Positions 2,131 to 46,643 of a stretch of DNA of 64,000 nt are shown here, piece by piece. Position numbers and translations under genes: made by a program. The number at the start of each line of letters is the position of its first letter. Positions within the stretch are counted from its first letter, which is position 1. Below the pieces are notes generated by a model, which was not told where the DNA came from, did not search any database, and worked only from the letters and a program-made list of their open reading frames with translations. Origin of the DNA: Candidatus Hydrogenedentota bacterium (GTDB lineage Bacteria > Hydrogenedentota > Hydrogenedentia > Hydrogenedentales > SLHB01); contig BTVY01000042.1 in the NCBI GenBank assembly GCA_045863335.1, positions 1-64,000 of the forward strand, written 5' to 3'.

Positions 2131-2256
2131 TCCGTGTAAGTCCGCGTAAGTCCGTGTAAGTCCGTGCAAGTCCGTGCAAGTCCGTGCAAGTCCGTGTAAG
2201 TCCGTGTAAGTCCGTGTATGTCCGTGTATGTCCGTGTATGTCCGTGTATGTCCGTG
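2131..2256. repeat. Tandem 10-mer array (TCCGTGTAAG/TCCGTGCAAG/TCCGTGTATG), about 12.5 units
   Basis: Directly visible; variants occur in blocks. Confidence 0.97.
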
Positions 2257-7021: not shown

Positions 7022-9205
<2,184 letters not shown>

Positions 9206-9245: not shown

Positions 9246-9680
9246 TCAACGCATACCCGCATCCGGAACCGCACCGCGACACTCCGGACAGACGCCCCAG
9301 AAAATGACTTCCGCCTCGTCGATCGTGTAGCCCGAGTCGTCCGCCGCATGCAGACACGGCGTTTCGCCCACGGCACAATCCACGTCCTCCACCCGCCCGC
9401 ACACGCGGCAAATCAGGTGGTGGTGATTGTCCCCGACCCGGTCCTCATACCGCGCCGGCGACCCCGCCGGTTGAATGCGCCGGATCAGCCCCTTCTCCGA
9501 CAGAACGCCCAAAGCATCGTACACCCCCTGCCGCGAAATGGCCCCAATCTCCGCCCGCACATCCTCCGCAATGGCATCCGCCGTCCCATGAGGGCGCGCC
9601 GCCACCGCCCGCAGCACTGCCAACCGCTGCGCGGTAACCTGGACCCCGTGGTCGCGAAGATATTGAGCCGGATCGGACAT
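9246..9680 (-). CDS. furA: Fur-family peroxide-responsive regulator (FurA/PerR type)
   Basis: [41 protein letters not shown]; directly upstream of katG. Confidence 0.92.
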
Positions 9681-9718
9681 GAGGGGAGTATACTCTAGAG
9701 TTTGGACTTTGTCAAGTC
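9681..9718 (-). promoter_or_regulatory. Sigma70 promoter of leaderless furA-katG transcript with overlapping palindromic operator
   Basis: Minus strand TTGACA(9715-9710)-17 bp-TATACT(9692-9687)-6 bp-ATG; GACTT-N4-AAGTC palindrome over the -35. Confidence 0.85.
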
Positions 9719-9941
9719 TTTGAGTTATACAAACATTGGCAGGCGTAACCATCCGCCCGCCAATGGATTGGCCGGGTAAGCCCGGCTTCGGTACGCTACG
9801 CTGGGGCAACCCCCTCGTCGCGCGTCAGCTTCTCTGTGGAGTGGGATGGACCGGTTTAGATGGCCTCGGCCACGGCCCGCGCTTTAGAGCCGATCGGGAA
9901 TGCTTCGGGCGGGATTCTCTCCGCGTCCGTCCGCGAAAGTT

Positions 9942-10056
9942 TGTGTCTGTCCCCGTGCATCCGTGTCTGTCCCTGTCTATACGCGTGCATCCGAGTCTGT
10001 CCGTGTCTGTCCGTGTCTGTCCGTGTCTGTCCGTGTCTGTCCGTGTCTGTCCGTGT
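9942..10056. repeat. Tandem 10-mer array (CCGTGTCTGT and variants)
   Basis: Directly visible; same TCCGTG core as 2131-2256. Confidence 0.95.
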
Positions 10057-10261
10057 GCTTTGCAGCCTACCGCCTCCAGCCTCGTCCCTGTCCTGCTCCC
10101 GCCACTCTTTTCTGAGATCGCAAATCTGAAACTCTCAAATCATCACCAGCCCCAACGAACCCACGCCCGGACTCCGCCCGCCATCATCACTCATCATTCA
10201 TCACTCATCATTTTGCCCCACTGCAACACCCTGCCCGATCTCTATAAGGAGATCTCACACC

Positions 10262-11734
10262 ATGCCAACCACCCCCAAACACACTACCCTCGGCACCCCC
10301 TGTGCGCGTTCCTGGACCAACGACTGGATCGCCACCGTCGACGCAACCGAATCCGAACGCAACCACCGCATCTGCGGCGCCCGCCTACCCGACGGCACGC
10401 CTTGTTGCAACGAATCCGGCCACCCATCCGGACGCTGCCCATTCCACGGCGGCTTCGATCTCACCGGCGCGCCCCAAGGCAACCGCAACCACGTCATCCA
10501 CGGACTCTACTCCCGCCGCCTCAGACCCTGCACCCAAACCTGCCCCCACTGGCAAACCTGCCCAGTCGCCAACCGTCATACTCGTCCAGGCGAATTCGGG
10601 AAACACGGAGACCCAGCTACCCACCCAGATCGTCATCCCCGTGAAAACGGGGACCCATCTTCGGACTTCTCCGATCCGACCGATCGATCCGATCCGTCCG
10701 ATTCCTCGCTCCAGACTACAGCCTACAGACTAAAGACTTCTTCCATTCCGCAATCCGCAGCCCGCAATCCGCAATTCCCCACCTGCCCCTACCAACTCGC
10801 CGAATACAACACCGTCCTGACCGACGCCCTCGCCATCGTCGAATCCCAGCCCCACCCCAACCCCATGGGCATCCACACCGCCCACAACGTCGCCACCCTC
10901 CAAGTCCTCGTCAGCACCGCCGCCAGCCAACTCGCGCAGGCCCCTAACCTCTGGACCTCCGAAGACCCCAACCCCGACCACCCAAACCCCACACCCCACA
11001 CCCCAAACCCCAGCATGGTCCTCGCCTTCACCCGCCTCATGCGCGAGTTCAGACACTCCCTGAAACTCCTCCACGCACCGGGGTTGACCCCCTTGAACCG
11101 TCACAATTCCATGGGTGCACCCCCAACCGCCGAAGGCATCCTCCGCCACGCCGAACGTTCCAAACACGACACCGGCCTCGACCCCGATTCCCTCGACGCC
11201 GCCCAACTCCAACCCCAAACGCCCGAGACCCACGCCAAAGCCTTTGTCCAACAGGCTGCGTTAGCCGGAGGACAAGGCCGCGACGTGGAAATGTGCGAAG
11301 CCTTCGACAACGCCGCCCTCCTCGACGAACCCTACGCCGAATCCGAACGCGGCCACGTCTTAGCCAGCTACCGTCCCGCCAGACACAGCGTCTCCGAAGA
11401 ACTCGCCGAAGCCATCCTCGGCCATCTCCACATCGAACCGCCAACATCAAACGGCAAAGGACAACCCATGCCCAACGAACACGCCCCCAACACAACCGCG
11501 CCCAGCAACGGACAAACGTCAACCGATGAACCCGACGACATCCTCCAGTACTACCTCGATCTCATCCGAGACGGAAAAATGCCCCCAGAAGCTTTCCCCA
11601 TCGGCTCCCCATTCCGAGCCCAAGCCGAAACCAAGAACGCAGGTCCACCCACTGCCGCCACGTCGCAGTCTCTCGGCGAAGAAAGGCCAGCGACCCGGGA
11701 GTTCCGCGACAAAGGTGGTCCTGTCCCAGCGTAG
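10262..11734 (+). CDS. HGGxSTG-type Zn-finger protein, putative phage terminase small subunit-like
   Basis: CGARLPDGTPC...GRCPFHGG..TGAPQGNRNHVIHGLYS resembles HGGxSTG / GAPxGNxNAxxHGxY motifs; lies upstream of TerL. Confidence 0.65.
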   Translation: MPTTPKHTTLGTPCARSWTNDWIATVDATESERNHRICGARLPDGTPCCNESGHPSGRCPFHGGFDLTGAPQGNRNHVIHGLYSRRLRPCTQTCPHWQTCPVANRHTRPGEFGKHGDPATHPDRHPRENGDPSSDFSDPTDRSDPSDSSLQTTAYRLKTSSIPQSAARNPQFPTCPYQLAEYNTVLTDALAIVESQPHPNPMGIHTAHNVATLQVLVSTAASQLAQAPNLWTSEDPNPDHPNPTPHTPNPSMVLAFTRLMREFRHSLKLLHAPGLTPLNRHNSMGAPPTAEGILRHAERSKHDTGLDPDSLDAAQLQPQTPETHAKAFVQQAALAGGQGRDVEMCEAFDNAALLDEPYAESERGHVLASYRPARHSVSEELAEAILGHLHIEPPTSNGKGQPMPNEHAPNTTAPSNGQTSTDEPDDILQYYLDLIRDGKMPPEAFPIGSPFRAQAETKNAGPPTAATSQSLGEERPATREFRDKGGPVPA

Positions 11735-11870
11735 TTCTGCCACCCTCAGTCGAGCGATGCGATATGGAACCGCGCCGTGTCCAGTGGTCCCGCTCGTGGC
11801 TTGCTCTGTTGCGACTGCGGCTCGGCTACAATTCTAAACCGCTTAGGAACAGCTAATGTGCACATCGACT

Positions 11871-12954
11871 GTTTTGCCCTTTCAGGGCGATGCTTGGGAT
11901 GTACCTGTTCCCAGGCGTTGCCCTGGGCTGTCCTGTACGACCCCTTCGGGGTCCAAGACCGGCTGCAGGCAAACCCAGTTCCACGATCCTCCATATCGTC
12001 CATGTCGTTCGTATCGCCCGTGCAGGTCTGTGCGGGGTTGTGTCCGTCTGTGCCGGTCCGTGTCGGTCCATACCCTCCCGACCTGCAGCCTCCGGTCTCC
12101 AGCCTGGTTTTCTGTCCGTGTAGGCCAATTGAAAAACGAGGGGCTCCGACCCTTCTCGCCAATACTTGACCACCCGCTACCCCGAAGGGGTATAACAGGA
12201 CAGCCCAGGGCAACGCCCTGGGAAACCGTTTGCACCAATTTGATCGCCCTGAAAGGGCAGTACAGGAGTTCACAAAATGGCGCAATCCCTTTCCGTGAAC
12301 CTGATTCATCTCATCTACAGCACAAAACACCGGAAACCCCATCTCACCGACGCCGTACGCCCGAAACTGTTCGCATACCAGGCGGGCATCTACGAAACCT
12401 TTGATTGCCCCGCCATCACGATCGGTGGAACCGGTGACCACATTCACGCGTTGTTTGTGTTGTCGAAGAACCTCGCTTTGTGCGATCTGATCAAGGAGGT
12501 CAAAAAAGCCTCCTCCAAATGGCTCAAGACACAGGGTCCCGAATTTGCCGAATTCCAATGGCAAAACGGCTACGGAGCCTTCTCCCTGAGTCAATCCCAT
12601 GTCGCCAGGGCGCGGCGCTATATCGATGCGCAGGTTGAACACCACCGAACCGTCACGTTTCAAGACGAATTCCGCTTGTTCCTGAAACGGTACCGCATTG
12701 AATACGACGAACGATACGTGTGGGATTGATCGGCCCGTTTTGCCCTTTCAGGGCGATGCTTAGGGGTCTGCCTGTTCCCAGGGCGTTGCCCTGGGCTGTC
12801 CTGTACGACCCCTTCGGGGTCTAAGACCGACAGCGCGTAAACCCAGTTCCACCATCATCCATGTCGTCCGTGTCAATCGTATCGTCCATGTCTGTCCACA
12901 CCCAATTGACCTCCAGCCTCCGGTCTCCAGTCTCCAGACTGGTTTCCGTCCGTG
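11871..12954. mobile_element. REP-flanked Y1 transposase locus (RAYT/IS200-like) with three ~83-bp multi-hairpin repeats (family D)
   Basis: Copies at 11871-11952 (+), 12179-12263 (inverted), 12737-12821 (+); imperfect direct repeat 11871-12121 vs 12737-12954. Confidence 0.85.
12277..12729 (+). CDS. tnpA: IS200/IS605-family Y1 transposase (REP-associated type)
   Basis: HLIYSTKHR, DHIH (HUH), WQNGYGAFS, catalytic RYI..Q.EHH, YDERYVWD. Confidence 0.95.
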   Translation: MAQSLSVNLIHLIYSTKHRKPHLTDAVRPKLFAYQAGIYETFDCPAITIGGTGDHIHALFVLSKNLALCDLIKEVKKASSKWLKTQGPEFAEFQWQNGYGAFSLSQSHVARARRYIDAQVEHHRTVTFQDEFRLFLKRYRIEYDERYVWD

Positions 12955-13290
12955 TTCACCACACAACCTCGGAGCACCCAAACCCATGCCACCCAAACCC
13001 CAACCCCTCTGGTCCACCCCCACCTACACACCAAAACTCAACAACCACGATCAATCCGTCTGTTCGATTGACCTCCAGCCCCCAGAAGCCTTCCCCATCG
13101 GCTCCCCATACCGGGTCCAGGCCGAAACTCACGAGTAACGGCGAGTCCATCTAAGTCCATACCGTCTGTGCAAGTCCGATGTAGCGCAGGCGTCCCCGCC
13201 TGCATTCTTTGGAGTTTTGTCTCAGGATTTGCAGTCGCGCAGCGGCGTGACTGCGCTACATCCGCCGCCCAACCCCGGAGCAACCCCAAA

Positions 13291-14778
13291 ATGACACGCA
13301 ATTCCAACCACCTATGGTCCACCCCCAACTACCCATCGAAGCTGTTGAGCAAACGCGCGTCCGTGCCCGTCCGTGTAGGTCCGTGTAGGTCCGTGCAACC
13401 CCGCACAACCTTCGCCCGACTCCACCTCCGCGATCCCCACGGGTCGCCCTGGCAACCGCGGCCCTACCAATTCCTCTCCCTGGAATCCCGGGCGCCGCGG
13501 AAGGTGCATTGCGATGGGCGGGATGTGGGGAAGACGTCGGAGATTGAGATTGCGGCGGCGTGGGCGGCGATGATGCGTCCGAATTCGCAGATGTTGATTG
13601 CGACGCAGTGTGAGAATCATCTGTTTCCGTTGATGGACCGGATCGTGCGGGTGTTTGAACGGAATCCGGCGTTTCGCGGGACGCTGGTGGATGTGAAGCG
13701 GACGCCGTCGTGGTGTCTGCGGTTTGCGAACGGGTTCGTGTTGTGGGGACGGATCGCGGGGCCGCACGGGATGAATTTCCAGGGGCTGCATGTGGATTGG
13801 CAGATCGTCGATGAGGCGCAGGAGATGACGGATGCGGCGTGGGAGGAGATGTTCCAGGCGCTGAATGGGGGCGGGTGGCGCTGGGTGTATGGGGTGCCGA
13901 ATGGGTTGCGGAACACGTTCCACCGGATGACGACGGACCCGAGTGCGGAGCAGTACAACTGGCCGTCGATGTTGAACCCGGCGTGGTCGGTGGAGAAGGA
14001 GGCGGAGCTGGCGCGGTTGTACGGCGGCACGGATTCGCCGGGGTACGTGCATCGCGTGCTGGGGCAGCATGGGTCGCCGGCGTATGCGGTGTTCGATCTG
14101 AACGCGTACCTCGCGTGTGTGGACGAGGGGCTCGCGTGGTTCGAGGCGTCGCTGGGGGAAGACGATCCCTTCGAGGCGCCGTCGGGCGTGGCGAAGGGGA
14201 CGTATTACCTGGGTTGCGACCTGGGGTACGTGCGGGACCCGTCGGAGTTTGTGATCTACCGGAGCGCGCCGCCGGATCTGGTGAACGTGGGGCGCGTGCA
14301 TCTGCGCGGGGTCAACTATCACCGGCAGCAGGGGATCATCGAGGAGCTGGATCGCGCCTACGACTTCCGCGTCATCGGCATCGACGCGGGGAACAACGGG
14401 AGCGCGGTGGCGCACAACCTGAAGAACATCGACGTGGAGTGGCACGGGAAGGTCATGGCCTTCGAGTTCGGCGGCGTCACGGAGACGGGGTCCTTTCCCG
14501 ACGGATCGCCGGACCGGCGTCCGACGAAGCTGTTCATGACGGAACTGCTGCAGCGGCGGATGGCGGACCGGACGATCGTCTTTCCGCCGCTGGCCGAACG
14601 GGAGTCGCAGTACGCAGGCCACACGTACACCGCCGGCATGCGGGGTCAGGTGTTGTTCGACAAGGGGAACGACCACCTCATCGACGCGGACCGTTGCGCG
14701 GTGTTGGCGCATTACCTGGACACTCAGGAGCTAAGCGCGGGGTCGTATTATCCCCATCTCCGGTTGGAGGCGTTCTGA
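13291..14778 (+). CDS. Phage terminase large subunit-like ATPase/nuclease (start uncertain; ORF open from 13168)
   Basis: PRPYQ adenine motif, GRDVGKT Walker A, IVDEAQE Walker B, GVPNG coupling motif, LGCDLG and DHLIDA RNase-H acidic residues. Confidence 0.88.
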   Translation: MTRNSNHLWSTPNYPSKLLSKRASVPVRVGPCRSVQPRTTFARLHLRDPHGSPWQPRPYQFLSLESRAPRKVHCDGRDVGKTSEIEIAAAWAAMMRPNSQMLIATQCENHLFPLMDRIVRVFERNPAFRGTLVDVKRTPSWCLRFANGFVLWGRIAGPHGMNFQGLHVDWQIVDEAQEMTDAAWEEMFQALNGGGWRWVYGVPNGLRNTFHRMTTDPSAEQYNWPSMLNPAWSVEKEAELARLYGGTDSPGYVHRVLGQHGSPAYAVFDLNAYLACVDEGLAWFEASLGEDDPFEAPSGVAKGTYYLGCDLGYVRDPSEFVIYRSAPPDLVNVGRVHLRGVNYHRQQGIIEELDRAYDFRVIGIDAGNNGSAVAHNLKNIDVEWHGKVMAFEFGGVTETGSFPDGSPDRRPTKLFMTELLQRRMADRTIVFPPLAERESQYAGHTYTAGMRGQVLFDKGNDHLIDADRCAVLAHYLDTQELSAGSYYPHLRLEAF

Positions 14779-14916: not shown

Positions 14917-17415
14917 ATGAAGTTCGTCACCACAGTAAGTCTGTTCATTCTTGTCGCGACACCGATTGTGGCCGCGGCAATCGCACCCGTCCAGATGGAG
15001 GGATGGGGCATCGTCGTCGCGGACGACGCTACGCCGAGCGAGCGTTACGCGGCGGATGAGTTTCAGGCCTTGTTCCAGCAATTGACCGGACTCTCCCTCG
15101 ACATTCGCGGGACCGCCCCGGAGGACGGTCACGCCGTGTATATCGGACCGGGCGCTGCGATTCATGCGCCGTCCATCGGGTTTGACGCCGAAGGCATGGG
15201 GGAGGAGGCGATGCGCATTCGCACCGATGGAGAGAATATCGTCATTGCGGGCGGACGGCCCCGCGGGACGCTGTATGGCGTCTACGAGTTTTTCGAACGG
15301 TACTGCGGCGTGCGATTTCTGACCGTGGACCACACGCACTTCCCGGCGGCGGAGACTATTCCGCCCATTAGGCCGACGGACTTCACGTATGCCCCGCCAT
15401 TCTCGTTCCGTTGGAGCTATTACAAGGCCAACTCGGATCATCCCGAGTTTGCGGCGCGCCTTCACGTCAATACGGTGACGCGCGAGGAACGGCTTGGCGG
15501 CATGACCGGCCAGTCGCTCATCGGCCACAGCTATGCCCGTTGGATCAACCCGGAGAAGTACGGCGAGACACATCCCGAATACTTTGCCTATATCGACGGC
15601 GAGCGCAGAAACACTATCCCCGCGCCGGCCACGGAACCTTGCGTGACCAATCCGGAGGTCATCGACATCATCACGCAATGCGTTCTCGACGAAATCGCCG
15701 CCAATCCCACCATGGAGAATATTGCGGTAAGCCAGAACGATAACGATGCGTATTGCCGGTGCGCCGAGTGCGAGGCCATCAACGAACGCGAAGGCACGCC
15801 AATGGGGGCCAACCTCGCGCTGGTCAACGCTGTGGCCGAGCGGGTCGAAGAAAAGTACCCGGATGTGATGGTTGGCACTTTGGCGTATTGGTATACCCGC
15901 AGGGCGCCCAAGACCATCAAGCCCCGCCACAACGTGCAGATCCAACTGTGCAGCATCGAGTGCTGTGAACTGCACCCCATCAACGACCCGGCTTGTCCAA
16001 AGAACGTCGAGTTCTGCAAAGACGTCATGGACTGGAAAGCCATCAGCGACAACGTGTGGATTTGGAATTACAACACCAATTTCTCGTATTACGATCTGCC
16101 GTTCCCGAATCTGCGCGTCATCGGACCCAACGTGCGCTTCTTCCGGGATAACAACGCCAAGGGCGTTTTCATGCAGGCCAACGCCATGGGCGACGCGGGT
16201 GAGATGTGCGATCTGCGCAACTACCTCATGGCGCGCACGCTCTGGGACCCGGAGTTGGAGAGCTGGCCGCTCGTTGAAGAGTTCTGCGCGCTGCACTACG
16301 AAGACGCCGCGCCGGTGATCCTCGAGTACCTCAACCTCAATCACGAGAACGCCGAGGTTCACGGCAACCATCCCAATTGCGGGGCCTTCCCGGTGGAACT
16401 GGGGTTAACCCCCGAGAGCGTGGAGAAGGGATTCGACCTGTTTCAACAGGCCCTCGCGCTTGCGCCGAACGATACCGTGCGCGCCCGGGTGGAAATGGCG
16501 TCCATTCCCGCGTACCGCGCGCTCATCGTGGCGAACGGCAGGCCCTGGAAGAATACGGACGGTGTGGTGAAGCGCGATTTGCCCGAACGGTTCAGCTCGG
16601 TGATTCCGGATTACATCGCCTTGTGCAAGAAGTACAACATGTCCTATGTGGCCGAGGGTCGGGCGTCCAGTATCTATTTCGAGCAACTCGAGAAGATGGC
16701 CGCCATGCCGTCCGTGGGAATCGAGAACGCAATCTGGCGCGTGACGATCCTTCCCGAACAGAACGGAAAGATGATCGAACTGGTGCACAAGCCCTCGGGC
16801 CGTCACGTGTTGCCGGCCATGACCCACGACAACATTCTTCAGGGTTGCCTCGATGAAGTTGCCCAGGCCGGGTTCACGTCGGATGCCTTCTCGGTCTTCG
16901 ACGCCCAAGTTGAAGACAATGTGATTCGACTGGTCCGTAAACTTGAAGACGGCAGTACCGTCGAGCGAAGCGTCGGGTTCAAGCCCGGCGAGCCGGACGC
17001 CATCCTGTGCACCTCACGGGTCACCAACCACGGCGCCGAACCTCGGCTCTTCCAGTTTCGTACGCGTCCGGAGTTCAACGCGTACAGCGGCAGTGCTGAT
17101 GAGAAGGTCGTGGCGGCCTACGTGAAGGGGGACACCTGGGTCCAGTTCAACCGGGAGTGGAAAGACGGTACGGGTCCTGACAGCGATCTCCTGGCGGCGT
17201 CCCGGGGCGGCGGCATGGCCTACTTCAATCATGAGATCAAGAGCGGTATGGAAGTCACCTACGCGCCGGACAGTGTAAAGTACCCCCGGCTACGCTGGTA
17301 TCCGCAGTACGAGCAAGTGAACCTGGAGCTATTTTCCAACGACGTAGAGCTGAACCCCGGCGAATCGCTCGCGATGGAATACACCCTCCGCCATCTCGCC
17401 GAACCGCCGCAATAG
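14917..17415 (+). CDS. DUF4838 domain secreted protein (GH20/GH67-like N-terminal domain)
   Basis: Signal peptide; ERYAADE, GGRPRGTLYGVYEFFE, HPEYFA, PCVTNP, YCRCAEC, VGTLAY. Confidence 0.85.
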   Translation: MKFVTTVSLFILVATPIVAAAIAPVQMEGWGIVVADDATPSERYAADEFQALFQQLTGLSLDIRGTAPEDGHAVYIGPGAAIHAPSIGFDAEGMGEEAMRIRTDGENIVIAGGRPRGTLYGVYEFFERYCGVRFLTVDHTHFPAAETIPPIRPTDFTYAPPFSFRWSYYKANSDHPEFAARLHVNTVTREERLGGMTGQSLIGHSYARWINPEKYGETHPEYFAYIDGERRNTIPAPATEPCVTNPEVIDIITQCVLDEIAANPTMENIAVSQNDNDAYCRCAECEAINEREGTPMGANLALVNAVAERVEEKYPDVMVGTLAYWYTRRAPKTIKPRHNVQIQLCSIECCELHPINDPACPKNVEFCKDVMDWKAISDNVWIWNYNTNFSYYDLPFPNLRVIGPNVRFFRDNNAKGVFMQANAMGDAGEMCDLRNYLMARTLWDPELESWPLVEEFCALHYEDAAPVILEYLNLNHENAEVHGNHPNCGAFPVELGLTPESVEKGFDLFQQALALAPNDTVRARVEMASIPAYRALIVANGRPWKNTDGVVKRDLPERFSSVIPDYIALCKKYNMSYVAEGRASSIYFEQLEKMAAMPSVGIENAIWRVTILPEQNGKMIELVHKPSGRHVLPAMTHDNILQGCLDEVAQAGFTSDAFSVFDAQVEDNVIRLVRKLEDGSTVERSVGFKPGEPDAILCTSRVTNHGAEPRLFQFRTRPEFNAYSGSADEKVVAAYVKGDTWVQFNREWKDGTGPDSDLLAASRGGGMAYFNHEIKSGMEVTYAPDSVKYPRLRWYPQYEQVNLELFSNDVELNPGESLAMEYTLRHLAEPPQ

Positions 17416-17923: not shown

Positions 17924-19393
17924 TTGAACACGCGTGAACTCAAGAACCTGGTCGCAGACGGAGAGTCGGAGCGCCTTGAACTGAAGCGCTCCACGGGCCA
18001 GAGAACCGAAGCCACGAAAAGTGTTTGCGCCATGCTCAATGGCATGGGTGGCTTCGTCGTGTTCGGTGTGACCGACCGGCGAGAAATCGTTGGCCAACAG
18101 GTCACAGCGAAAACCCTTGAAGATATCGCGGCCGAACTGCGACGAATTGAACCGCCTGCATTTCCCGACATCGAGACGATTACGGTCAAGAAAGACCACG
18201 ATGTGATTGTATTGACGGTCCCCGGCAGCGCGGGACCCTATCACTACGATGGACGGCCTTACATCCGGCAGGGTCCGACCACCATGGTCATGCCGCGCGA
18301 AGAATATGAAAGAAGGCTCGTCGAACGTCTACACGCCAATCGCCGATGGGAAAATGAACCCGTTGCCGAGGGCGTATCCATAGGGGACCTCGACAAGCAG
18401 GAAATCCAAAATACGATGGACACCGCCATCAGCTTGGGGAGACTGGAGCCCACGGGGCGTCGAGACGTGGAGTCAATTCTTCGTGGCTTGGAACTCATCC
18501 GCGAAGGCAAACTCCTGAACGCGGCCGTTGCCCTTTACGGAAAGAGCGATAGACTCAAGACGCTCTATCCGCAGTTCAGCATAAGGCTCGCCCGTTTTCG
18601 TGGCGTGAATCGCCTTGCCGATTTCTCGGACAACCGGCAGTACTGGGGGCATGCATTCTCGCTCTTGAGCCGGGCCCAGTCTTTTCTCATGGATCACGTG
18701 CCAATCGCCGGGAGGGTCGTTTCGGGCAAGATGGTCCGTGAGGATCAGCCGCTCTATCCGCTTCGGGCAACGCGCGAGGCGCTGGCGAACGCTTTCTGCC
18801 ACCGTGATTACACGGTACCTGGCGGTGCGGTCGCTGTGGCCATGTACGATGACCACCTCGAGATTACCAACCCTGGCGCGCTTCATTTTGGAATTACCCC
18901 TGAGAAGCTGAAAGTGCCCCACGAGTCCAAACCGTGGAATCCAATCATCGCGAACGTCTTCTACCGGGCTGGAATCATCGAGCGATGGGGAAGTGGCACG
19001 CTCAATATCATCGACTGGTGCACGGAGAACGGCAATCCCGCGCCGGAATGGCAGGAGCAGGCAGGCTCTGTTTTCGTGACATTCCCTCCGGCGGAGCCGC
19101 ACGGGGCAATCTCAGGAAAGGATAAGGATCGGGACCAAGTTGGGACCAAGTTGGGACTAAGTCGGGACCAAGTTCTCGCCATGCGTCAAGTCACTGTGGG
19201 GAAAGGGATTGCAGCGATCTTGGCGTCGTCTGGGAGAACCAATAGGACCAAGTTCAGGGACCAAGTTTTAAAACCACTTTTGGAAGCCGGACTCGTCGAA
19301 TTGACGATCCCAGACAAGCCCCGGAGCAGCAAGCAGCAATATCGCCTGACGGAAGCAGGAAAGCGATATCTTGCGGACTTGGACAAGGCCTGA
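17924..19393 (+). CDS. AlbA_2 (Schlafen-like) + HATPase_c_4 + C-terminal wHTH protein
   Basis: GESERLELKRS..CAMLNGMGG.V.FGVTD; REALANAFCHRDY; NPIIANVFYRAGIIERWGSG; PDKPRSSKQQYRLT. Confidence 0.88.
   Translation: MNTRELKNLVADGESERLELKRSTGQRTEATKSVCAMLNGMGGFVVFGVTDRREIVGQQVTAKTLEDIAAELRRIEPPAFPDIETITVKKDHDVIVLTVPGSAGPYHYDGRPYIRQGPTTMVMPREEYERRLVERLHANRRWENEPVAEGVSIGDLDKQEIQNTMDTAISLGRLEPTGRRDVESILRGLELIREGKLLNAAVALYGKSDRLKTLYPQFSIRLARFRGVNRLADFSDNRQYWGHAFSLLSRAQSFLMDHVPIAGRVVSGKMVREDQPLYPLRATREALANAFCHRDYTVPGGAVAVAMYDDHLEITNPGALHFGITPEKLKVPHESKPWNPIIANVFYRAGIIERWGSGTLNIIDWCTENGNPAPEWQEQAGSVFVTFPPAEPHGAISGKDKDRDQVGTKLGLSRDQVLAMRQVTVGKGIAAILASSGRTNRTKFRDQVLKPLLEAGLVELTIPDKPRSSKQQYRLTEAGKRYLADLDKA
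19130..19173. repeat. Intragenic 11-mer YGGGACYAAGT x4
   Basis: Directly visible; two more GGACCAAGT copies at 19245 and 19258. Confidence 0.93.
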
Positions 19394-19498
19394 ACGTGCT
19401 TAGGGAGACTTCTCGACCGGCAATTGGCCCAAATCGTCGGGCGTGAAATATGGCTTTCCAACTTGGCCCCAATGTATTGAAGGCGAACTCGGACCAGC

Positions 19499-22002
19499 AT
19501 GTCGCATGATGATGAACGGCTCGGACAGGAGCTTGCGAAAGCAAGAGAGGAAATCTGCCGACTCCAGGAGGAGAACAGACGCCTAAGGGCTGTTCTTGGC
19601 GCATTCTCCGTGAAGACCGGCAGTGCCATCAGGACGCCAACGGCCAACGTACAGCTCGCAACCAGGCCACCGTCAACAATGCCACCGACTCCACCGCGTG
19701 ATTCGCAGGCAGTAGCTGATAAACGGATTAAGCTTTTTCGCGCATTGTTTCGCGGCAGGGATGACGTCTACGCCGTACGCTGGGAGAATAAGAAGGGGAA
19801 ATCCGGCTATTCGCCCGCCTGCGCCCACGAGTGGAATCCAATGATCTGCAAGAAGCCTGGAGGCAGGTGCACGGATTGCAATTATCTTCCGCTCACGGAC
19901 GATGTGGTTCGCGCCCACCTTCTCGGACAGAAAACCATCGGCATTTATCCCATGCTAAGCGATGAGACATGCTGGTTCCTTGCCGCCGACTTTGATAAGG
20001 AAGGTTGGCTAGAAGACGCTCGAACATTCCTTGCGACGAGCTGGGCAATGAAAGTGCCGGTATACCTGGAACGCTCGCGATCGGGAAATGGCGCGCATGC
20101 ATGGATATTCTTCGAGCAGGCCGTGCCCGCGGCGGTGGCTCGGAAATTGGGCAGTGCAATTTTGACGTCATCGATGGAGAAACGTCACCAAGTCGGACTG
20201 AATTCTTACGATCGGCTATTCCCAAACCAAGATACGATGCCCAAAGGCGGGTTTGGAAACCTAATTGCAGCCCCACTGCAACGAACACCGAGAGACGGGG
20301 GAAACTCCGTGTTCCTTGACGATGATTTTGAGCCTCATTCTGACCAGTGGAGCTTTCTCGCCGCGGTCAAACGTCTCTCTATCGGCGCACTCGAACGGAT
20401 TATCCGAGATGCCGAACAGCGAGACATCATCGTGGGTGTTCGCCTGCCGATTGTCGATGAAACACGCGGAATAGATCCTTGGACACTACCCCCGTCGCGA
20501 AAACGTGCTGAACCTCCAATTCCTGGCCCCTTGCCGAAGGACTTGACTATCGTCAGGAGCAATCTGCTCTATTTGGAGAAGCGTTCTCTGAATCCTTCGT
20601 TGACCAACCGCATCATTCGGCTGGCAGCGTTTCAGAATCCCGAATTCTATGCCGCACAGTCGATGCGCCTTTCGACGTTTGGAAAACCAAGGGTGATTGG
20701 TTGTGCGGAGGAGTTTCCCGACCACGTTGGGATTCCGCGCGGGTGCTTCGAAGATCTGAAAGTCTTTCTTGAGTCGCACGCGGTTGAGCTCAAAGTCAAA
20801 GACGAGCGCCTGACGGGAACACCTGTGGCGTTCTCGTTCCATGGCCAACTCAGTAGCGAACAACAGTCCGCGGCCGAGGAGTTGGTTGAACACGATGATG
20901 GTGTCTTCGTAGCACCGCCCGGCTTCGGCAAGACCGTGCTGGCGGCGTGGCTCATCGCACAAAGAAACGTAAATACGCTCGTTCTTGTGCATCGCACGGC
21001 GCTCCTGGAGCAATGGCGTGAGCAGCTCGCCCTCTTTCTGAACGTGAATAGACAGTCTATCGGAATGATAGGAAGTGGTCGGCACAAGACCACGGCTCTT
21101 CTGGACGTCGCAATGTTGCAGACTCTTCAGCGGAAGGGACAGGTAGCCGATCTCGTGGCCGACTATGGCTTCGTTATTGCAGACGAATGTCACCACCTTT
21201 CGGCCTTCACGTTCGAGCGCATTATGAGGGAGGTTAAGGCGAAGTATGTGCTAGGCCTGACGGCAACGCCGATTCGAAAGGACGGCCACCACCCCATCAT
21301 ATTCATGCAGTGTGGTCCAATCAGGCAACGCATCAGCGCCAAACTTGCTGCGGTGCGTCGGCCATTTGAACATCTTGTCGTTCCCCGCGAGACAAGACTG
21401 GTCGTAAACCTACCAGAACCTTCGATTCATGACGTGTACCACGCTATCACCCACGACGAGACGCGAAATCGACAAATCGTCGACGACATCGTACGGGCGG
21501 TGAATTCGGGGCGTTCGCCGATTGTGCTTACCGAGCGTGTCGACCATCTCAAAACGTTGGAATCCATGTTACGAACGCGAGCACTGACGCAGAAGATCCT
21601 CGTCTTAAGGGGTGGAATGAAGTCCAGTGAACGGACCGATGCTCAAGAAGCTCTCTCAATAGACGCCGCCAATGAGACCATAGTGATCCTTGCGACTGGA
21701 AAATTCATCGGCGAGGGGTTCGATTATTCCCGACTCGACACACTTTTTTCGCCATGCCCATATCATGGCGAGGCACACTGGAACAATACGTTGGCCGTCT
21801 GCACCGATTGCACGAAAGCAAATGCGAGGTGCGAGTGTACGACTACGTGGACTGCAACGTCCCAATACTCACAAGGATGTACGCGAAACGCATTCGTGGG
21901 TATCGCGCCATGGGGTATTCAGTATTGGAGCAGGACGATCAACTGGCGCTTCGATATGAACTCGGACACTCGAGAGATAGTGTGAACCGAGGGCCGGATT
22001 AA
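19499..22002 (+). pseudogene. TOTE-type AEP primase domain + SF2 (ResIII-like) helicase, frameshifted near 21745
   Basis: LFRGRDDVYA, FLAADFD, ERSRSGNGAHAW, GFGNLIAAPLQ; GFGKT, DECHH, GLTATP; motif VI QYVGRLHR lies in another frame (21754-22002). Confidence 0.85.
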
Positions 22003-22104
22003 AGATGGCGATTTTCGCTTGACCGATTCCTGAATAACAACGTGTCGAAACCTCTGATGTAACCGTGTACAGAGATCAAGGGACAGCCGCCCGCGGCAGT
22101 CCGT

Positions 22105-23277
22105 CTACCACCAAGAGAATACTTGCTCGTCCAGCACGGAGTAGGGACTGGTTCGAAGGGGATCAAGGCGGTCGGCCTGCTGAAGCGCCCACTCGATCCA
22201 CTCGAAAACAGATTGATCGCCATACATGAACGCTTCTTCCTCCGCCCGATCGCGAACCGCGGCGACATATTCGCGGATCATCTGACTGCGCTTCCATGCG
22301 TCGACATGTTTTTCCAAGTATTCCAAGCGGGCGCGTTCCCGTTGCTGTAGCTGGCGAATCTCTTCGTTCTTACGCTGCCGCTCAAGTCGCTTTGCCTCTT
22401 CGATCGCCCGCTGGAGCTTATCGGAACGGCTGGAAACCGCCGACCGAAAAAGGGCGCAAATGAACTTGTTGAGCATTAACTCCACCCGTTGAATCTTCCC
22501 GTCCGACCAATTCTGGCGACCGTAAGAGCTGGCGTCACGCTTGATGCACAATACGAGTTGGCCGCTCGGATGATACGTGTATTCCGTTCGGTCGTACCGC
22601 CAGGAATCTCGCTCTTTCTCGCGCTTTTGCGCGGGTGTCAGTTCTTTCTCCCGCCGATGCACCTTTTCCTCAAGCCCGATTCCAAACGTCTCGCCCAGCA
22701 CCGTGACCCGAGTGGGGAGTTCCGTTTCCCCTGTTAGTTCGACAGCGATGTTTCGGGCTTCCAGTGCCTTCAGCAACGCGTCCATGATGCACAGCGCTCT
22801 GGATAACGCATTCCTGGACACCCGTATGTCCAAGCACTTCTGGGCGTTCGGGTAAAGCAATTGCCGCTCGTTTTCGGGAGCGTTGCGAAGGCTCCTCTCG
22901 GCTCTTGCAACATAGGGATGGGGATCTAACAGTTCACTGGTCACGGTTACTTGCTTTTCGGGAAGCGCTTCCTCCGTAATCAGACTTTCCGCTTGCCGTC
23001 TCTGCTCCTCGTCGTAGGGCCGCTCGTCCACGACATACAGCTTGAGAACGATTTCTTCCTTGCCGGGCAGCGGCTTCAGCGGGGCCTGTTGAATCGGCTT
23101 TCCATGCTGGACTTTTACCCAATGTCCCATCGGCGGTCGAGGTATTTCGTACTCCTCAGACAACTGAAGCAACTGGCCGTACCAGAGCCCGAGTTCCTTT
23201 TCCAACACTTTCAATGGTTTGCTCCACAGCTGTTCGTACAGGTCTTTGCGGGTTGTCCGCCATTCTCTGGTTTTCAT
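22105..23277 (-). CDS. Island-associated hypothetical protein (N-terminal HTH-like, C-terminal coiled coil)
   Basis: TRKDLYEQLWSKP...IPRPPMGHW N-terminus; WIEWALQQADRLDPL C-terminus. Confidence 0.75.
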   Translation of the reverse strand: MKTREWRTTRKDLYEQLWSKPLKVLEKELGLWYGQLLQLSEEYEIPRPPMGHWVKVQHGKPIQQAPLKPLPGKEEIVLKLYVVDERPYDEEQRRQAESLITEEALPEKQVTVTSELLDPHPYVARAERSLRNAPENERQLLYPNAQKCLDIRVSRNALSRALCIMDALLKALEARNIAVELTGETELPTRVTVLGETFGIGLEEKVHRREKELTPAQKREKERDSWRYDRTEYTYHPSGQLVLCIKRDASSYGRQNWSDGKIQRVELMLNKFICALFRSAVSSRSDKLQRAIEEAKRLERQRKNEEIRQLQQRERARLEYLEKHVDAWKRSQMIREYVAAVRDRAEEEAFMYGDQSVFEWIEWALQQADRLDPLRTSPYSVLDEQVFSWW

Positions 23278-23886
23278 TTTCCTGCTCCTGAACGTGGCCG
23301 ATTCTTGCTTGGGTAAGCGAAGGCAGCAACGCGCATCCGTTCCCCGTTTCCGGTTAACGAACGGAGTAGACCGCCTTAAGCGTTCCAGCACGGATGAGCT
23401 ATTGCCACTGAATGAGTTTCTACACGGTAGTTGAGCTTAGCAAAGGACGGATGTCAGGTCTTGGTTGGCTGGCTGGAAAACGACAGATCTCGCGATGCGT
23501 GATATGGAGCGTGGATCTACCCTATGGTTCCGCGGTTACCCGTCAAACACGCGAACATCTCCGGTTGCCCCGGCGCACAAGACGCTTTCCCACGTTTCTT
23601 ACGGCGCCAGCACGTTCCAGTCCATGATGGACGCAATTCTTGGGCAGCAGCGATGTCGAGACGGGGTCGCACGGTTGGGTTTTGGATGTGTAAGCCGACA
23701 GGATATCGATTGAAAAGCGCACGTAAAATGTGCAATTGATGTGCAACTGGTCTTTGGCACCCAGTCTATTGGTCTGTGTAAGTCGTTCAAGAAAAAGCGC
23801 TTACAAACGCCGCAATCTATTGATGGCGGCGGGTAGATGGCCAGACGCCACAAATTGCGTAAGCCATTGTTGTTAAACAAGTTAGT

Positions 23887-24244
23887 TGGTGGAGGCGGCG
23901 GGAATCGAACCCGCGTCCGAAAGTGCGTCCCTGCAAGCATCTACGTGTGTAGCCCGTCCTTTAGGATTCGCCGCCGTCGCACGCGTCGGGCTCGCTTACG
24001 ACGGCCGCTAGGCGGGGTCGGTACTCTCCGCCGAAGTCCCCGCCGGACTTCGACCTCGAGGCCCGCTGTCGTCGCCTTAGCCCCCTAGCAGGCGGTCAGG
24101 GGTAAGACGCGCTACTCTAGATTAAGCAGCGAGTGCCAATGGTTCGTTGGCATTTGTTTGGTAATCGGCTTTTTACGAGGCCAACCGATCAACCTCGACA
24201 CGCAACTTACGCTTCAACACTCCCGTCGAAACCATGTCGCCCCC
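23887..24244 (-). ncRNA. ssrA: tmRNA, tag peptide (A)ANEPLALAA
   Basis: 5' GGGGGCGACATGGTTTCGACGGG, 3' GGTTCGATTCCCGCCGCCTCCACCA with G3-U pair; tag ORF at 24151-24122. Confidence 0.97.
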
Positions 24245-30630: not shown

Positions 30631-33600
30631 CTACGGTGCTGAAACTTCCTTCGTAGACTTCCAATTCTGTATTTCGTCGCGCAACGAAATGGTACTGATC
30701 TGCAGACCTGTGGTCTCTTGCTCGTCGTAGCGCTCTAGTGACAATTGCATAGTTTCAGAGTCGTAAGTCCAACTGCGAATACCGTCCCACTCATCACCAC
30801 CCAGGGAGGCGGGTTGCCACTTCTGACGCTCCTCATCAAAGGAGCGTACATAGAGTCTTACAAAGTTTCCGTTCCCTGAGGGACCGGTCATTTCAATAAT
30901 CCATGGTAGAGCCTCACCCATGTCAACCAATTCATTTGTAATGAAGCTCAACTCGCGGGAAGGAACAAGGTCGGGAATCTCAGGATCCATTAGATCGCAG
31001 ACAATGAACTCATCACCTGAATCCTGCACTGTGTACGGGGCCACACGGATGCGACGAAACGACATTCCGTCAACAATCCAAAACACGTGATGAAACACAA
31101 CAATAGGATTCAATGAGCTTGTGAATCCACTCTTATACAACACGGCCGGCCGCGTGTCCCCGTCCAGACTGTCATACGTGGAATTACACATTTCTTCCGG
31201 AACAGACTGCTCATCTCGTGATACACTCACCTTGATTTTTTGGGGAATTTCCACCCAGTTAATGATATCCGCGAGCCTCCTCTTCACGGCATCGAAGGTC
31301 GCCTCCTGCTCAAACGTTCCGATCACCAAGTCGCGCAGACGTTCATCAAGGAAGATCGTCTTCGTTCTCCACACAGACATCCACTGGACCCAGCCCGTAC
31401 TGTGCTGCTTTTCAAGGAATTCGATATAAGTTTGCGCATCATGCTTAAAAGCAAGAATTAGCTCGTCCAAGTCATCACTCAAGGCTGGTGGTGTAATATA
31501 ACAAGTCAATCCTCCAGATTGTGTTTGCGGGATTTGGTGCTCGTTCTGGACGTTTGATGTTCGATCTTCGACGGACTTTACGACTTCCCGTTGCGCCCAA
31601 TCGGTTACATTCAAAGTAGCGTCGACAGACTCGCCAAATCGTTCCAAAGAGTAGCTGTACCGAAGCTCACAGGTTTCCCGATCGTAATATATGTCGGCGA
31701 ACTTATAGAGACCCTCGGGCACGACCGACTCGCTCAATTTCCACAGTTCGTTTTGCGGGTCGTAGACCATACGGTACAAGGTCACGTCCGTCTCTTGTGC
31801 GACGCCGTAGGAGATGAATATCAGCACCGGCTTGGCTACCTCGTTCGAGAACGCGTCAAGGAAATAGTAAAACCAGCAAAGGGGCGGACCGGCCGTGAAG
31901 CTCACGGCCCCATCACCAAGTTCCGGGAAGGTGGAGAGCCGGGCACCGCTGGGTTCCACGTGGATCACGTACGGTACGGTTATTCCCCGGCTCCAGCCCC
32001 ACATGGGTCTGACGAACGAATTCTGAAGCGCGTAGATTCGCTCGCCATCCGGAGAATCGATGGACCAGCACAACACCCTGGGGAGCTTGTCGGCGTCGGT
32101 CAGTTCCATCTGTATTGAGGTGTCCACGCCGGGCAGCGTGGGGCCGCCACGGACGTCAAATGTTCCAGGTTCGATCTGCTCGAAAGAGGCGACTCCCTCC
32201 AACGCGCGTTGGACGCTTTCTACGTCCGGCAACGTTTCGAATGCGACCAGAAGGCATTGGCGCACCGCCGCGTCCATTGGGGGTAGGGCCTTTTCCATAA
32301 TGAGCAAATTGTCGGGTTGCGGGACTTTCAAAACCGCTTGCCCATTGTCGTCAATCGTGTAGGCCAATGCGTCGCTCGCTTGCGCGATGTACCGGTCGTT
32401 GGCTTCGCGCAGTTGGGCAATGGCGTCGTCGAGAGATGGGTGCGGACTTTCCTGCAGAATCCTCTCACCCAAAACAGTGACTAGTTCTGAGTACGCGCCC
32501 CTGAGGTTAACTGCTAACTCCCTCGCCAGCGCTCTATCCTCCGCGAACTCCGCCAGCACACACTCCGCCTGCAGGACATCCAGCGTTTGAGCCACCTGAA
32601 GGCACTCCCTAACGTTTTTGAGAGACTTCGCTGGTATCCAAAGTTCTGCTCCCGCAGCGCCAAAGATCACTAGTGAGTTCTGTTCGAGCGCACGTGACAC
32701 GTCAGTGAAAGCATTGGCGGATAGATCGCCGACACGAGGAGAATCGGCAATAGTTTGCGCGGACGTCGAGACACCGGCCAAGAAATCGAAATCTCCGTAG
32801 AACAGAGGACACGGCAGACTACTGTTGGCAAATCGTACGAACACCGGACTCGGCCATGGCTTCACAAGCACGAAAGATCCTGGGTTATCTTCTGTTAGTA
32901 CCTCAGTCACAATCTCCTGAGATCGCACAAATTCAATCGTTGCACTAAGCGCCTCTTGCCTATCCGAGTACTCGCGAAGCAGGTGTGCATACAGAAAATT
33001 ATTCACATACCTCAGTAATTCTGAATCTGATCGGAACTGGCCATCTATAGGAAGGGAAAACTTCGCAGAATTCTCTCCCTCCACCGGCTGTAGAATGAAA
33101 GATCTGACTGTGACACCGTTTATGCAGAGATCTGCTTTACTGGACGTCTTTACGGTTTCGACCTTGTATGGAGGTGGGATAAAGTTCCCGTGAACTATTA
33201 CAACGCCTTTATCGACTCCACCGGAGAAGTGAGGGCTTAAGCGCTCGCGCGTGAAAGTATTAATCACGGCATTTTGCGAGAGAGTTGGGTCGTAGCGTCT
33301 AGTTGACGACGACACTGCAGCGACAACACGCCAGCGACCGTCCACCAATCGATAATCGAGTTGCCCTTCCGATGCTAAAGTTGTAATGAACCTGAGCCAC
33401 GTTGCGGGCTTCTCAATTTTGCTCGCATAATCAATACTCACGTACGTTGTCAGTGGCTGATCAAATTCGATCTCACTCCCATCTAATTCTGCAATAGAAA
33501 CTAACAGTTCACGCGCCGGGACGCAGCGGGCGATGATGCTTAGGGTTTCGCCTCCTTCGGGTGCTTCTTCTATACGTAGATATCCGATGGGATAGGAAGT

Positions 33601-33723
33601 AAGGAGAGCGTCTCCGGTGGGCGTGCAGACCTGCGAAAGGGAGAGTGTTGATCCTGCGCAAGCGACTGCAATGGATGCCAATGCGAGGCAGTGGCGGTGT
33701 ATACGGTGGTATGGTGTGTCCAT
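30631..33723 (-). CDS. Large AT-richer secreted hypothetical protein (~1030 aa) with tandem duplicated C-terminal domain
   Basis: Long ORF; signal-like LALASIAVACAG; atypical composition; internal repeat. Confidence 0.8.
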   Translation of the reverse strand: MDTPYHRIHRHCLALASIAVACAGSTLSLSQVCTPTGDALLTSYPIGYLRIEEAPEGGETLSIIARCVPARELLVSIAELDGSEIEFDQPLTTYVSIDYASKIEKPATWLRFITTLASEGQLDYRLVDGRWRVVAAVSSSTRRYDPTLSQNAVINTFTRERLSPHFSGGVDKGVVIVHGNFIPPPYKVETVKTSSKADLCINGVTVRSFILQPVEGENSAKFSLPIDGQFRSDSELLRYVNNFLYAHLLREYSDRQEALSATIEFVRSQEIVTEVLTEDNPGSFVLVKPWPSPVFVRFANSSLPCPLFYGDFDFLAGVSTSAQTIADSPRVGDLSANAFTDVSRALEQNSLVIFGAAGAELWIPAKSLKNVRECLQVAQTLDVLQAECVLAEFAEDRALARELAVNLRGAYSELVTVLGERILQESPHPSLDDAIAQLREANDRYIAQASDALAYTIDDNGQAVLKVPQPDNLLIMEKALPPMDAAVRQCLLVAFETLPDVESVQRALEGVASFEQIEPGTFDVRGGPTLPGVDTSIQMELTDADKLPRVLCWSIDSPDGERIYALQNSFVRPMWGWSRGITVPYVIHVEPSGARLSTFPELGDGAVSFTAGPPLCWFYYFLDAFSNEVAKPVLIFISYGVAQETDVTLYRMVYDPQNELWKLSESVVPEGLYKFADIYYDRETCELRYSYSLERFGESVDATLNVTDWAQREVVKSVEDRTSNVQNEHQIPQTQSGGLTCYITPPALSDDLDELILAFKHDAQTYIEFLEKQHSTGWVQWMSVWRTKTIFLDERLRDLVIGTFEQEATFDAVKRRLADIINWVEIPQKIKVSVSRDEQSVPEEMCNSTYDSLDGDTRPAVLYKSGFTSSLNPIVVFHHVFWIVDGMSFRRIRVAPYTVQDSGDEFIVCDLMDPEIPDLVPSRELSFITNELVDMGEALPWIIEMTGPSGNGNFVRLYVRSFDEERQKWQPASLGGDEWDGIRSWTYDSETMQLSLERYDEQETTGLQISTISLRDEIQNWKSTKEVSAP

Positions 33724-33837
33724 TTGAACCCCCAAATTTTCCAAGACCCGGGATAGGGGTCTATCGTTCCCTATACTATTATACCTCTGCGAGCAATGTG
33801 GTTGCGCAACGCATCGCGCTATGGATTCGGAGTGAAT

Positions 33838-33975
33838 GCGAAGATGGGTCCCCGCCTGCGCGGGGATGACGGCATCGAGGTGCTCGCGGTTTCGGGCATG
33901 GAATTGTAGCGCCCGGGTTCCACCCCGGGCGAGTGACGGAGCCGGGGACGTCCGGCGTGGAAGCCGGACGCTACA
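33838..33975. repeat. Family-B hairpin plus family-A REP-like element
   Basis: Homologous to 30286-30450 in mirrored order. Confidence 0.85.
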
Positions 33976-34026
33976 GTGCGGATTCTCTTGTGGAAGGTGG
34001 ACGTTACGGGGGATTCTCATCTCGGT

Positions 34027-46615: not shown

Positions 46616-46643
46616 TCGGCGGATCGCGGCTGAAAGTGGCAAG

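Follow-up and report, generated by a model that had tools for sequence, protein, structure and literature searches.

What is an intact phage packaging motor doing among the genes of a bacterial host? The question is raised by a stretch of 64,000 nucleotides from a Candidatus Hydrogenedentota bacterium (the window; positions 1–64000 of contig C42 in an assembly of 6.75 Mb in 105 contigs), in which an open reading frame (ORF) resembling the terminase large subunit (TerL) follows an ORF for a 490-aa protein of the HGGxSTG/GAPxGNxN type. An initial annotation had read the two as an orphan terminase pair, belonging either to a domesticated packaging module or to a dispersed gene transfer agent (GTA). 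ORFs were called here with a heuristic of the analysis itself, and all genomes used are metagenome-assembled, with many loci stopping at contig breaks. What can be said firmly is that the window TerL is an accessory paralog, intact and under selection, of the terminase that belongs to a domesticated particle system found throughout the phylum, and that it is recurrently linked to an HGGxSTG gene; most likely it is an alternative packaging enzyme for that same particle.

The setting given in the initial annotation was borne out. A family scan confirmed katG (7022–9187, − strand) and fur (9246–9809, −) upstream of the pair and a DUF4838 gene (14917–17415, +) downstream, and no phage structural Pfam family was found in the 48 larger window ORFs scanned, in agreement with the claim that the rest of the 64 kb lacks recognisable phage genes. 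Both ORFs exist as described: the HGGxSTG-type gene at 10262–11734 (+), which reads CPFHGGFDLTGAPQGNRNHVIHGLYS, and the TerL-like ORF at 13168–14778 (+), in which RPYQF, GRDVGKT, VDEAQ, CDLGY and NDHLIDAD can all be read. Relatives align to the latter only from residue ~74, and a terminator-like hairpin (13186–13203) lies inside its 5′ part; for these two reasons the first ~40–75 codons are probably not coding, translation probably starting at ATG 13291 or GTG 13393, and the gene is given here as 13291–14778 (+).

For TerL, a match to PHROG_2 (terminase large subunit) was obtained with an E value of 1.7e-20, and none in Pfam or NCBIfam, terminase families included. Recognition by profile, a check proposed in the initial annotation, was thus achieved through PHROG_2 and through no Pfam or NCBIfam terminase family, the HGGxSTG match falling below its cut-off. 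The protein consists of an additional-strand, conserved-glutamate (ASCE) ATPase (GRDVGKT, VDEAQ), with Walker A P-loop, Walker B and catalytic Glu all present, and an RNase H-like nuclease (CDLGY, GIDAGN, NDHLIDAD), whose acidic metal ligands D351, D406, D502 and D506 are invariant among 23 relatives; K122, E216 and H503 are invariant in the same set and D215 nearly so (at least 90%). The G+C content at third codon positions (GC3) is 0.83, compared with 0.84 for katG.

The fold was modelled on a paralog from the same genome (P0007, encoded on C23 and 66% identical to the window TerL) rather than on the window protein. Its AlphaFold2 model (predicted local distance difference test, pLDDT, 92.6) had T4 gp17, D6E, HK97 and Sf6 TerL as top Foldseek matches in the PDB (E 1e-18 to 1e-12; 1.9e-18 for T4 gp17), and its nuclease domain matched the TerL nucleases of G20c, P74-26 and SPP1. 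With the solved enzymes (T4 gp17 3cpe, D6E 5oe8, HK97 6z6d, Sf6 4idh) it shares the two-domain ASCE ATPase and RNase H-like nuclease fold and the catalytic residues, although identity is only 12–16%; a PDB sequence search with TerL matched no terminase chain. Among the 120 listed of 421 public relatives, none is named terminase; those named by their source, nearly all from Hydrogenedentes, are called hypothetical protein, and none has a precomputed Pfam domain.

The gene for the paralog lies at C23:33253–34731. When the window protein was used as query, a match was found in 37 of 41 related genomes; with the C23 TerL as query, matches were found in 89 of the 94 Hydrogenedentota genomes that are at least 90% complete (83 of the 86 high-quality ones). 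These core matches are mostly single and full-length, at 52–95% identity. A housekeeping control from the same contig, Asd, was present in 92 of the 94 at 68–99% identity. Each genome with a window-type TerL also holds the core copy.

A TerL tree of 79 rows was built by a quick method with long branches included; named-record loci (L043–L074, largely duplicating the compared genomes), partial hits below 400 aa, two broken copies from genome G004 and a partial copy, G005:C475, were left out. Core rows cluster by family, with f13 (8 of 8), f8 (3 of 3) and f3 (3 of 3) each forming one clade. For 61 core rows from 11 families, the family label changes 11 times on the tree (minimum 10), compared with 34–44 times in 200 shuffles; since kin share labels, this shows vertical descent rather than independence. 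The core TerL tracks taxonomy and is vertically inherited. The window type forms a clade of six rows (window, G003, G015, G089, G088 and G021; Shimodaira–Hasegawa-like approximate likelihood ratio test, SH-aLRT, 100) nested among the core genes of family f1, beside the genus's own core clade and G012. The window TerL is therefore an accessory paralog that arose from the core gene within f1 and never replaces it.

Ratios of nonsynonymous to synonymous substitution (dN/dS, Nei–Gojobori) were 0.02–0.08 for eight pairs of core TerL genes, 0.075 for the window gene and that of G003, and 0.10–0.21 for deeper window-type pairs; at dS values of 0.25–1.0, the window-type ratios indicate long purifying selection. 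These values bear on whether the gene could be a remnant of an ordinary prophage. True prophages with a related TerL (33–38% identical) do occur in the phylum, where the TerL gene is accompanied by those for a portal (PHROG_2739) and a MuF-like head protein of 1518 aa, and that portal family is present in 8 of 94 genomes. Their TerLs, however, are separated from the core and window clade by a branch of 4.35 substitutions per site, whereas a host gene that is inherited vertically shares 66% identity with the window TerL, which has no other phage gene around it in the 64 kb; we regard a prophage remnant as extremely improbable. With motifs intact, purifying selection evident and the nearest relatives outside prophages, the initial view of a retained motor rather than a decaying prophage holds.

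Other TerL types were noted in the phylum. In the prophage loci L079–L086 (e.g. G023:C24:5277–16920), the 1518-aa MuF-like protein has a further match to endonuclease VII, and genes for two large DNA methyltransferases are present. A third TerL class, 42–45% identical to the core protein, was seen in four genomes (L075–L078; G084:C22, G083:C66, G044:C187 and G087:C343), with a homologue of the small partner of the core TerL (described below) at two or more loci, an HNH endonuclease nearby and no portal seen. The branches of this class are very long and fall within the core clade, which makes its placement unsure.

A packaging enzyme calls for a portal and a capsid, and the initial annotation had proposed searching the whole genome for them. 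Searches of the window's own genome with PF04860, PF05133, PHROG_2739 and PF04233 gave no match, and the single PF05065 capsid (a family present in 12 of 94 genomes) lies on C2 in a separate island carrying integrase, primase and a terminase small subunit (TerS). These first searches pointed to a lone domesticated terminase without portal or capsid, a reading overturned by an operon on C14, where both genes were found. A match to PF06074 (Mu portal) lies at C14:124883–125734, and PHROG matches across the operon (C14:124625–133623) are to a portal (2.6e-49), PHROG_16951, a virion protein, a major head protein (1.1e-52) and a Dit-like tail protein. Further genes run as far as the end of the contig, and the operon probably goes on in C82. 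The C2 island itself (L088, G000:C2:75811–84642) is satellite-like, with integrase, primase–helicase, small terminase (PHROG_83), HK97-type capsid (PF05065, PHROG_10) and an ERCC4-type nuclease, and no TerL or portal was seen in it.

Across the phylum, the portal was found in 88 of 94 genomes (45–97% identity) and the capsid in 84 (57–99%), nearly always as single copies. In G035 and G022 the portal-to-tail operon directly follows the core TerL, with the gene order of the window genome's own C14, and coordinates place TerL and portal less than 10 kb apart in G085, G075 and G089 also. The G035 cluster ends ~12–13 kb past the small partner; a search of the window's own genome around that end matched nothing more of the cluster, genes for a sheath or tape measure not being among those sought. 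For replication, integration and lysogeny genes, there was no PHROG match in 13 ORFs around the C14 operon, which runs off the contig end, and no Pfam match around C23, lysis and regulator genes not being sought. Portal, capsid and core TerL thus occur nearly phylum-wide, and in G035 and G022 the operon comes directly after the core TerL; on this evidence the genome holds a GTA-like set of phage-particle genes, dispersed over at least two places (C23 and C14) and inherited vertically, from which particles are presumably made. The idea of a dispersed GTA was thus correct for the genome and misplaced for the locus, where the TerL is an accessory paralog and the core gene lies on C23. Two genomes that are 95–96% complete (G027 and G041) have portal and capsid and no core TerL match at E ≤ 1e-5, and three others (G017, G028 and G077) have TerL and no portal or capsid match. 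No link between Hydrogenedentes and terminases or GTAs was found in the literature searched; two passages of 10.1101/2022.02.18.481119, the one paper with both words, are unrelated.

What, then, accompanies each of the two enzymes? On C23 a 173-aa ORF ends 4 bp inside the TerL gene, the small partner and core TerL together spanning 32735–34731. By iterated profile search, 64 ORFs beside TerL in the loci examined are relatives of this small partner, and they span families f1, f2, f3, f5, f7, f8, f10, f11, f12, f13 and f15. The family is 150–170 aa long with a motif of the type RERLRKAxKELE ... GLAD...P; its position, size and conservation suggest that it fills the role of TerS. As a recognised TerS it was rejected, since none of 31 members matched a terminase family in Pfam at E ≤ 1 and none did so in PHROGs, and a PDB profile search returned designed helical proteins only. 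The protein bears a name in none of the family libraries. In the Atlas, a Terminase_4/Terminase_6 cluster ranks ninth for it (score 0.90), which is taken as a lead only. The same iterated search found no small-partner homologue at any window-type locus, and it would appear that the small partner has there been exchanged for the HGGxSTG protein.

At its N-terminus the HGGxSTG protein bears a Cys/His motif resembling a zinc ribbon; it also has a second set of four conserved Cys and a helical body with disordered linkers. In an alignment of 28 sequences, Cys/His residues at 38, 48, 54, 59 and 62 and Cys residues at 90, 94, 100 and 175 are invariant. Against NCBIfam NF041373 (HGG_STG, 'HGGxSTG domain-containing protein') it scored 22.8 bits (E 5.5e-05, residues 38–65), below the 29-bit cut-off. 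The motif Cys...Cys...GRC.FHGG..(S)TGAP.GN.N..HG.Y is common to both, at residues 38–83; the domain covers only 28 of 490 residues, and the remainder of the window protein matches nothing known. A structure model was helical (pLDDT 69.8; predicted template modelling score, pTM, 0.53). In the Atlas, a Terminase_4 cluster stands at rank 17 for this protein (score 0.76), again a lead only. Every public relative for which a name is given is labelled hypothetical, and the word HGGxSTG was not found in the literature searched. In the phylum, 22 of 94 genomes have the family, a single genome having as many as 13 matches. A 45-nt leader (10217–10261, +) is conserved before all four HGGxSTG genes of the window's own genome (window, C1, C37 and C51); in an alignment of the four, GATCTC...GAGATC is able to form a hairpin, GATCTC..AAGGAGATC, that covers the ribosome-binding site AAGGAG.

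HGGxSTG genes lie within 5 kb of a window-type TerL at six loci. In the window (where the two were close before an insertion described below), in G004:C1 and in G015:C5, HGGxSTG is upstream of TerL and co-oriented with it, the genes being adjacent in G004:C1 and forming one 947-aa open frame that spans both in G015:C5; at G004:C24, G021:C23 and G088:C65 the two are divergent and 2.8–4.4 kb apart. The loci of G003, G005 and G089 are truncated where their contigs end. Long-form HGGxSTG proteins and window-type TerL share their genera (g1, g8, g11 and g17). With six loci within 5 kb, one single frame and few copies per 6–7 Mb genome, chance linkage is hard to get, and repeated genomic linkage of window-type TerL and HGGxSTG is shown. 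A complex prediction for TerL residues 75–536 with HGGxSTG gave an ipSAE of 0.38, against 0.00 for the best control, with a partner pLDDT no lower than 57 and agreement between runs in no fewer than 21% of contacts. Of 157 solved complexes, 116 reach the mark thereby passed, as do 2 of 215 mismatched pairs. The prediction weakly supports binding of the HGGxSTG protein to TerL, and we infer that it binds both DNA and TerL.

These observations suggest a sequence of events in which a TerL was copied from the core gene inside family f1, the copy lost the small partner and became coupled to the 490-aa zinc-ribbon HGGxSTG protein, and a later insertion separated the two genes in the window by 1.5 kb. 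The window TerL would dock on the portal and procapsid that the core enzyme also uses; the HGGxSTG protein would be its subunit for DNA recognition or its adaptor, and the particle would thereby gain a second specificity of packaging. That the window holds such an accessory TerL duplicate of a domesticated GTA-like set, with HGGxSTG as its partner on the same particle, is a proposal to which we give an even chance; the window enzyme would on this view make use of the domesticated particles.

A number of findings weigh against this proposal. The HGGxSTG protein, which the initial annotation took for a small subunit, showed no resemblance to a TerS: it had no match to TerS families in Pfam (E ≤ 0.1) or PHROGs (E ≤ 0.01), nor was it identified as one through NCBIfam, and its model gave no Foldseek match at E ≤ 0.001 (best 0.13 in BFVD and 0.81 in the PDB), a weak model that cannot exclude a TerS fold. 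Homology to the core small partner, which holds the TerS position, was rejected by hhalign (probability 0.35%, E 0.17), and at 490 aa the HGGxSTG protein is about three times as long. HGGxSTG genes also far outnumber TerL, with four copies in the window's own genome of which one is linked, and many of the 22 genomes having no window-type TerL; on the G092:C69 contig, which carries a window-type TerL, no HGGxSTG match was seen. The complex score of 0.38 falls in a band (≤0.60; 18 of the 157 solved complexes and both mismatches that passed) where passes are mostly wrong unless the pairing is already likely. The distribution is patchy, window-type TerL being found in nine genomes, all of family f1, so that the comparison with relatives fell out in two ways: dN/dS is far from 1 and the core set is vertical, as the retained-module idea required, and the window type is not widely kept. 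Both G004 copies of the window-type TerL (L036, G004:C24; L037, G004:C1) have the same ~134-bp insertion after residue ~167, which shifts the frame; it is either a small mobile insert that was duplicated together with the gene or an assembly fault common to both copies. In a public RNA-library run, near-identical contigs were found only at 11506–11755 and 13183–13395, and were not counted as expression since such libraries can hold DNA. Finally, an insertion at the locus may have uncoupled the two genes here.

The insertion centres on a gene for a 150-aa IS200-like, RAYT-like transposase (12277–12729, +), which matched Pfam Y1_Tnp (E 5.9e-21), the transposase family PHROG_2577 and, at 49.6 bits and below the 55-bit cut-off, NCBIfam transpos_IS200. 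Repetitive extragenic palindromic (REP)-like hairpin elements flank it upstream (11869–12265, with inverted copies at 11914–11952 and 12179–12217) and downstream (12737–12890, 88% identical to 11871–12022), and copies related to the upstream elements were found on C21, C38 and C3. With the RAYT gene and REP hairpins, which the initial annotation had overlooked, between them, the HGGxSTG and TerL ORFs are not adjacent. The insertion is bracketed by a 51-nt duplication, a segment at the 3′ end of the HGGxSTG gene coding for PPEAFPIGSP (11581–11631, +) being repeated with 90% identity at 13078–13128. A mini-ORF of 50 codons (12986–13137, +) looks like a remnant: its beginning resembles the leader of TerL (LWSTP.Y..KL) and its end the C-terminus of the HGGxSTG protein (PPEAFPIGSP..AET). 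In public sequencing runs, no contig with good flanks joined across the RAYT insert, the listed joints having sides of 20–53 letters in repeats.

Such debris might be expected if the window TerL were a redundant recent duplicate on its way out, kept by chance or for a mild dosage benefit, with its proximity to HGGxSTG a coincidence of repeat-rich regions. The patchy, f1-limited distribution, the frame-shifted G004 copies, the RAYT/REP insertion with its remnant mini-ORFs, a longer stem branch and dN/dS values of 0.10–0.21 against 0.02–0.08 for the core all accord with this. Long purifying selection on the window type, retention of every catalytic residue and the six separate HGGxSTG–TerL loci, one of them a single frame, nevertheless speak against a decaying duplicate, which we consider quite unlikely.

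The repeats around the locus could also be traced elsewhere in the genome. A 10-nt repeat array (GTCCGTGTCT)n lies upstream of the HGGxSTG gene (9999–10055, +, within a wider degenerate array at 9920–10068), and three units lie just before GTG 13393 (13359–13395, +). The repeat (GTCCGTGNNN)n, which also lies at window positions 2150–2256, has 56 strand-specific loci genome-wide, on the strand of the next gene and often less than 100 bp from its start; ten loci are at contig ends, so that the repeat breaks the assembly. As a regulon mark of the HGGxSTG, TerL and C14 genes, GTCCGTGNNN was rejected: it precedes three genes of the C14 operon and also dnaJ, clpB, gatC, metH, a PBP gene and glycosyltransferase genes, and is thus a generic intergenic repeat that gives no evidence of co-regulation. 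A hairpin element at 13179–13237 (GCAGGCGTCCCCGCCTGC followed by a T-rich tail) recurs on at least 12 other contigs at 82–100% identity and is probably a dispersed terminator or REP-type repeat.

A different explanation for the linkage is that HGGxSTG and TerL form a minimal mobile module, a selfish hitch-hiker that parasitises the domesticated particle, packages DNA beside HGGxSTG copies and spreads in the manner of phage satellites. The location of the window type is not conserved: of the flanks compared, only that of G003 is syntenic (it has the DUF4838 flank in common, 2932 bases aligning at 93.7% nucleotide identity), that of G005 differs, and the loci in G004, G015 and G021 lie amid unrelated metabolic genes. 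G004 has two window-type TerL copies, the window-type clade covers four genera whose core genes sit elsewhere in the tree, and HGGxSTG genes are multi-copy, often near contig ends, with homology among copies beginning sharply 45 bp before the ATG, i.e. at the start of the leader. On the other hand, no integrase, replication gene or tRNA attachment (att) site was found at the locus; among the 48 larger window ORFs scanned there was no integrase, att site or replication module of the kind carried by satellites resembling phage-inducible chromosomal islands (PICIs), and the only RNA gene within window positions 1–30000, a tmRNA gene (23887–24244), lies beyond the native DUF4838 gene. Transposon ends around the HGGxSTG copies were sought and rejected, no terminal inverted repeats being found. 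The GC3 of TerL is fully host-like, branching within the window-type clade roughly follows genera, and the four HGGxSTG copies of the window's own genome, 64–70% identical, have no common neighbours. The hitch-hiking module is unlikely on this evidence, yet worth weighing. Slightly less probable is a more specific form, in which a duplicated terminase has joined with a multi-copy zinc-ribbon protein that binds DNA, and the two genes act as a packaging parasite on a GTA-like particle owned by the host, preferentially loading DNA near HGGxSTG copies, the pair included; to our knowledge, a satellite of a GTA is a kind of element undescribed so far.

Could TerL instead be a nuclease or ATPase co-opted for defence or another non-packaging role, such as a decoy or an effector in a neighbouring conflict island? 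About 3 kb downstream lies an island of lower G+C content (17924–23391, 0.54–0.56) adjoining the tmRNA gene, and portal and capsid are not found within the window. The island encodes a Schlafen/AlbA_2–HATPase_c_4–Fic-C protein, a fusion of a TOTE-type archaeo-eukaryotic primase (AEP) with a ResIII/DEAD helicase, and an ORF of 428 aa assigned to no family, and looks like a conflict-system island inserted at ssrA. The native DUF4838 gene lies between the pair and this island, however, and accompanies TerL in G003; other window-type loci lie amid metabolic rather than defence genes, and a matching portal and capsid are present in the genome. PADLOC returned nothing for HGGxSTG or TerL, and the decoy or defence role put forward in the initial annotation was not upheld; we judge it very unlikely. 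Defence, decaying duplicate and prophage remnant are all less likely than an alternative packaging enzyme. Further along the window, at 45629–55409, a row of MoxR AAA, DUF58, VWA, VWA, TPR, BatD and TPR genes resembles an aerotolerance (Bat)-like operon.

If the window TerL is an alternative packaging enzyme, the locus has wider bearing. GTAs are known from few lineages, and their choice of DNA to package is a central question. Here, some 90% of the genomes of an uncultured phylum retain a set of particle genes derived from a phage, and public records naming its TerL say only 'hypothetical protein'. Within it, family f1 has evolved what would be a second packaging enzyme with a different partner, seen as a single open frame in one genome. 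Should the partner set packaging specificity, this would be a natural pair of terminases on one capsid, allowing a test of how a domesticated particle chooses DNA and whether selfish genes can exploit it. The HGGxSTG domain also gains its first testable context.

Among known systems, the nearest counterparts of the particle genes are the RcGTA-type GTAs of Alphaproteobacteria, which are multi-locus, vertically inherited, phage-derived particle genes. As in RcGTA, the Hydrogenedentota set comprises genes for phage heads, tails and packaging, and the scans around C14 and C23 showed no genes for replication or integration beside them; it is near-universal and single-copy in a large clade, tracks taxonomy, is under purifying selection and is sometimes multi-locus. 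It differs in belonging to another phylum and in its phage ancestry (Mu-type portal, PF06074/PHROG_3753; capsid, PHROG_3922). A second, diverged terminase with a non-TerS partner is not known from any described GTA, and none was found in the literature by title or abstract.

For the pair itself, the closest comparison is with phage satellites, in which Staphylococcus aureus pathogenicity islands (SaPIs) and PICIs with their own TerS, and capsid-forming PICIs, carry terminase subunits that redirect the packaging of a helper. Like these, the window pair provides packaging genes without a full virion set and would need capsids encoded elsewhere. Unlike them, it has no integrase, att site, replication or repressor genes found at the locus, and its HGGxSTG partner was recognised as a TerS by none of Pfam, PHROGs and Foldseek; its 'helper' would be a domesticated particle owned by the host.

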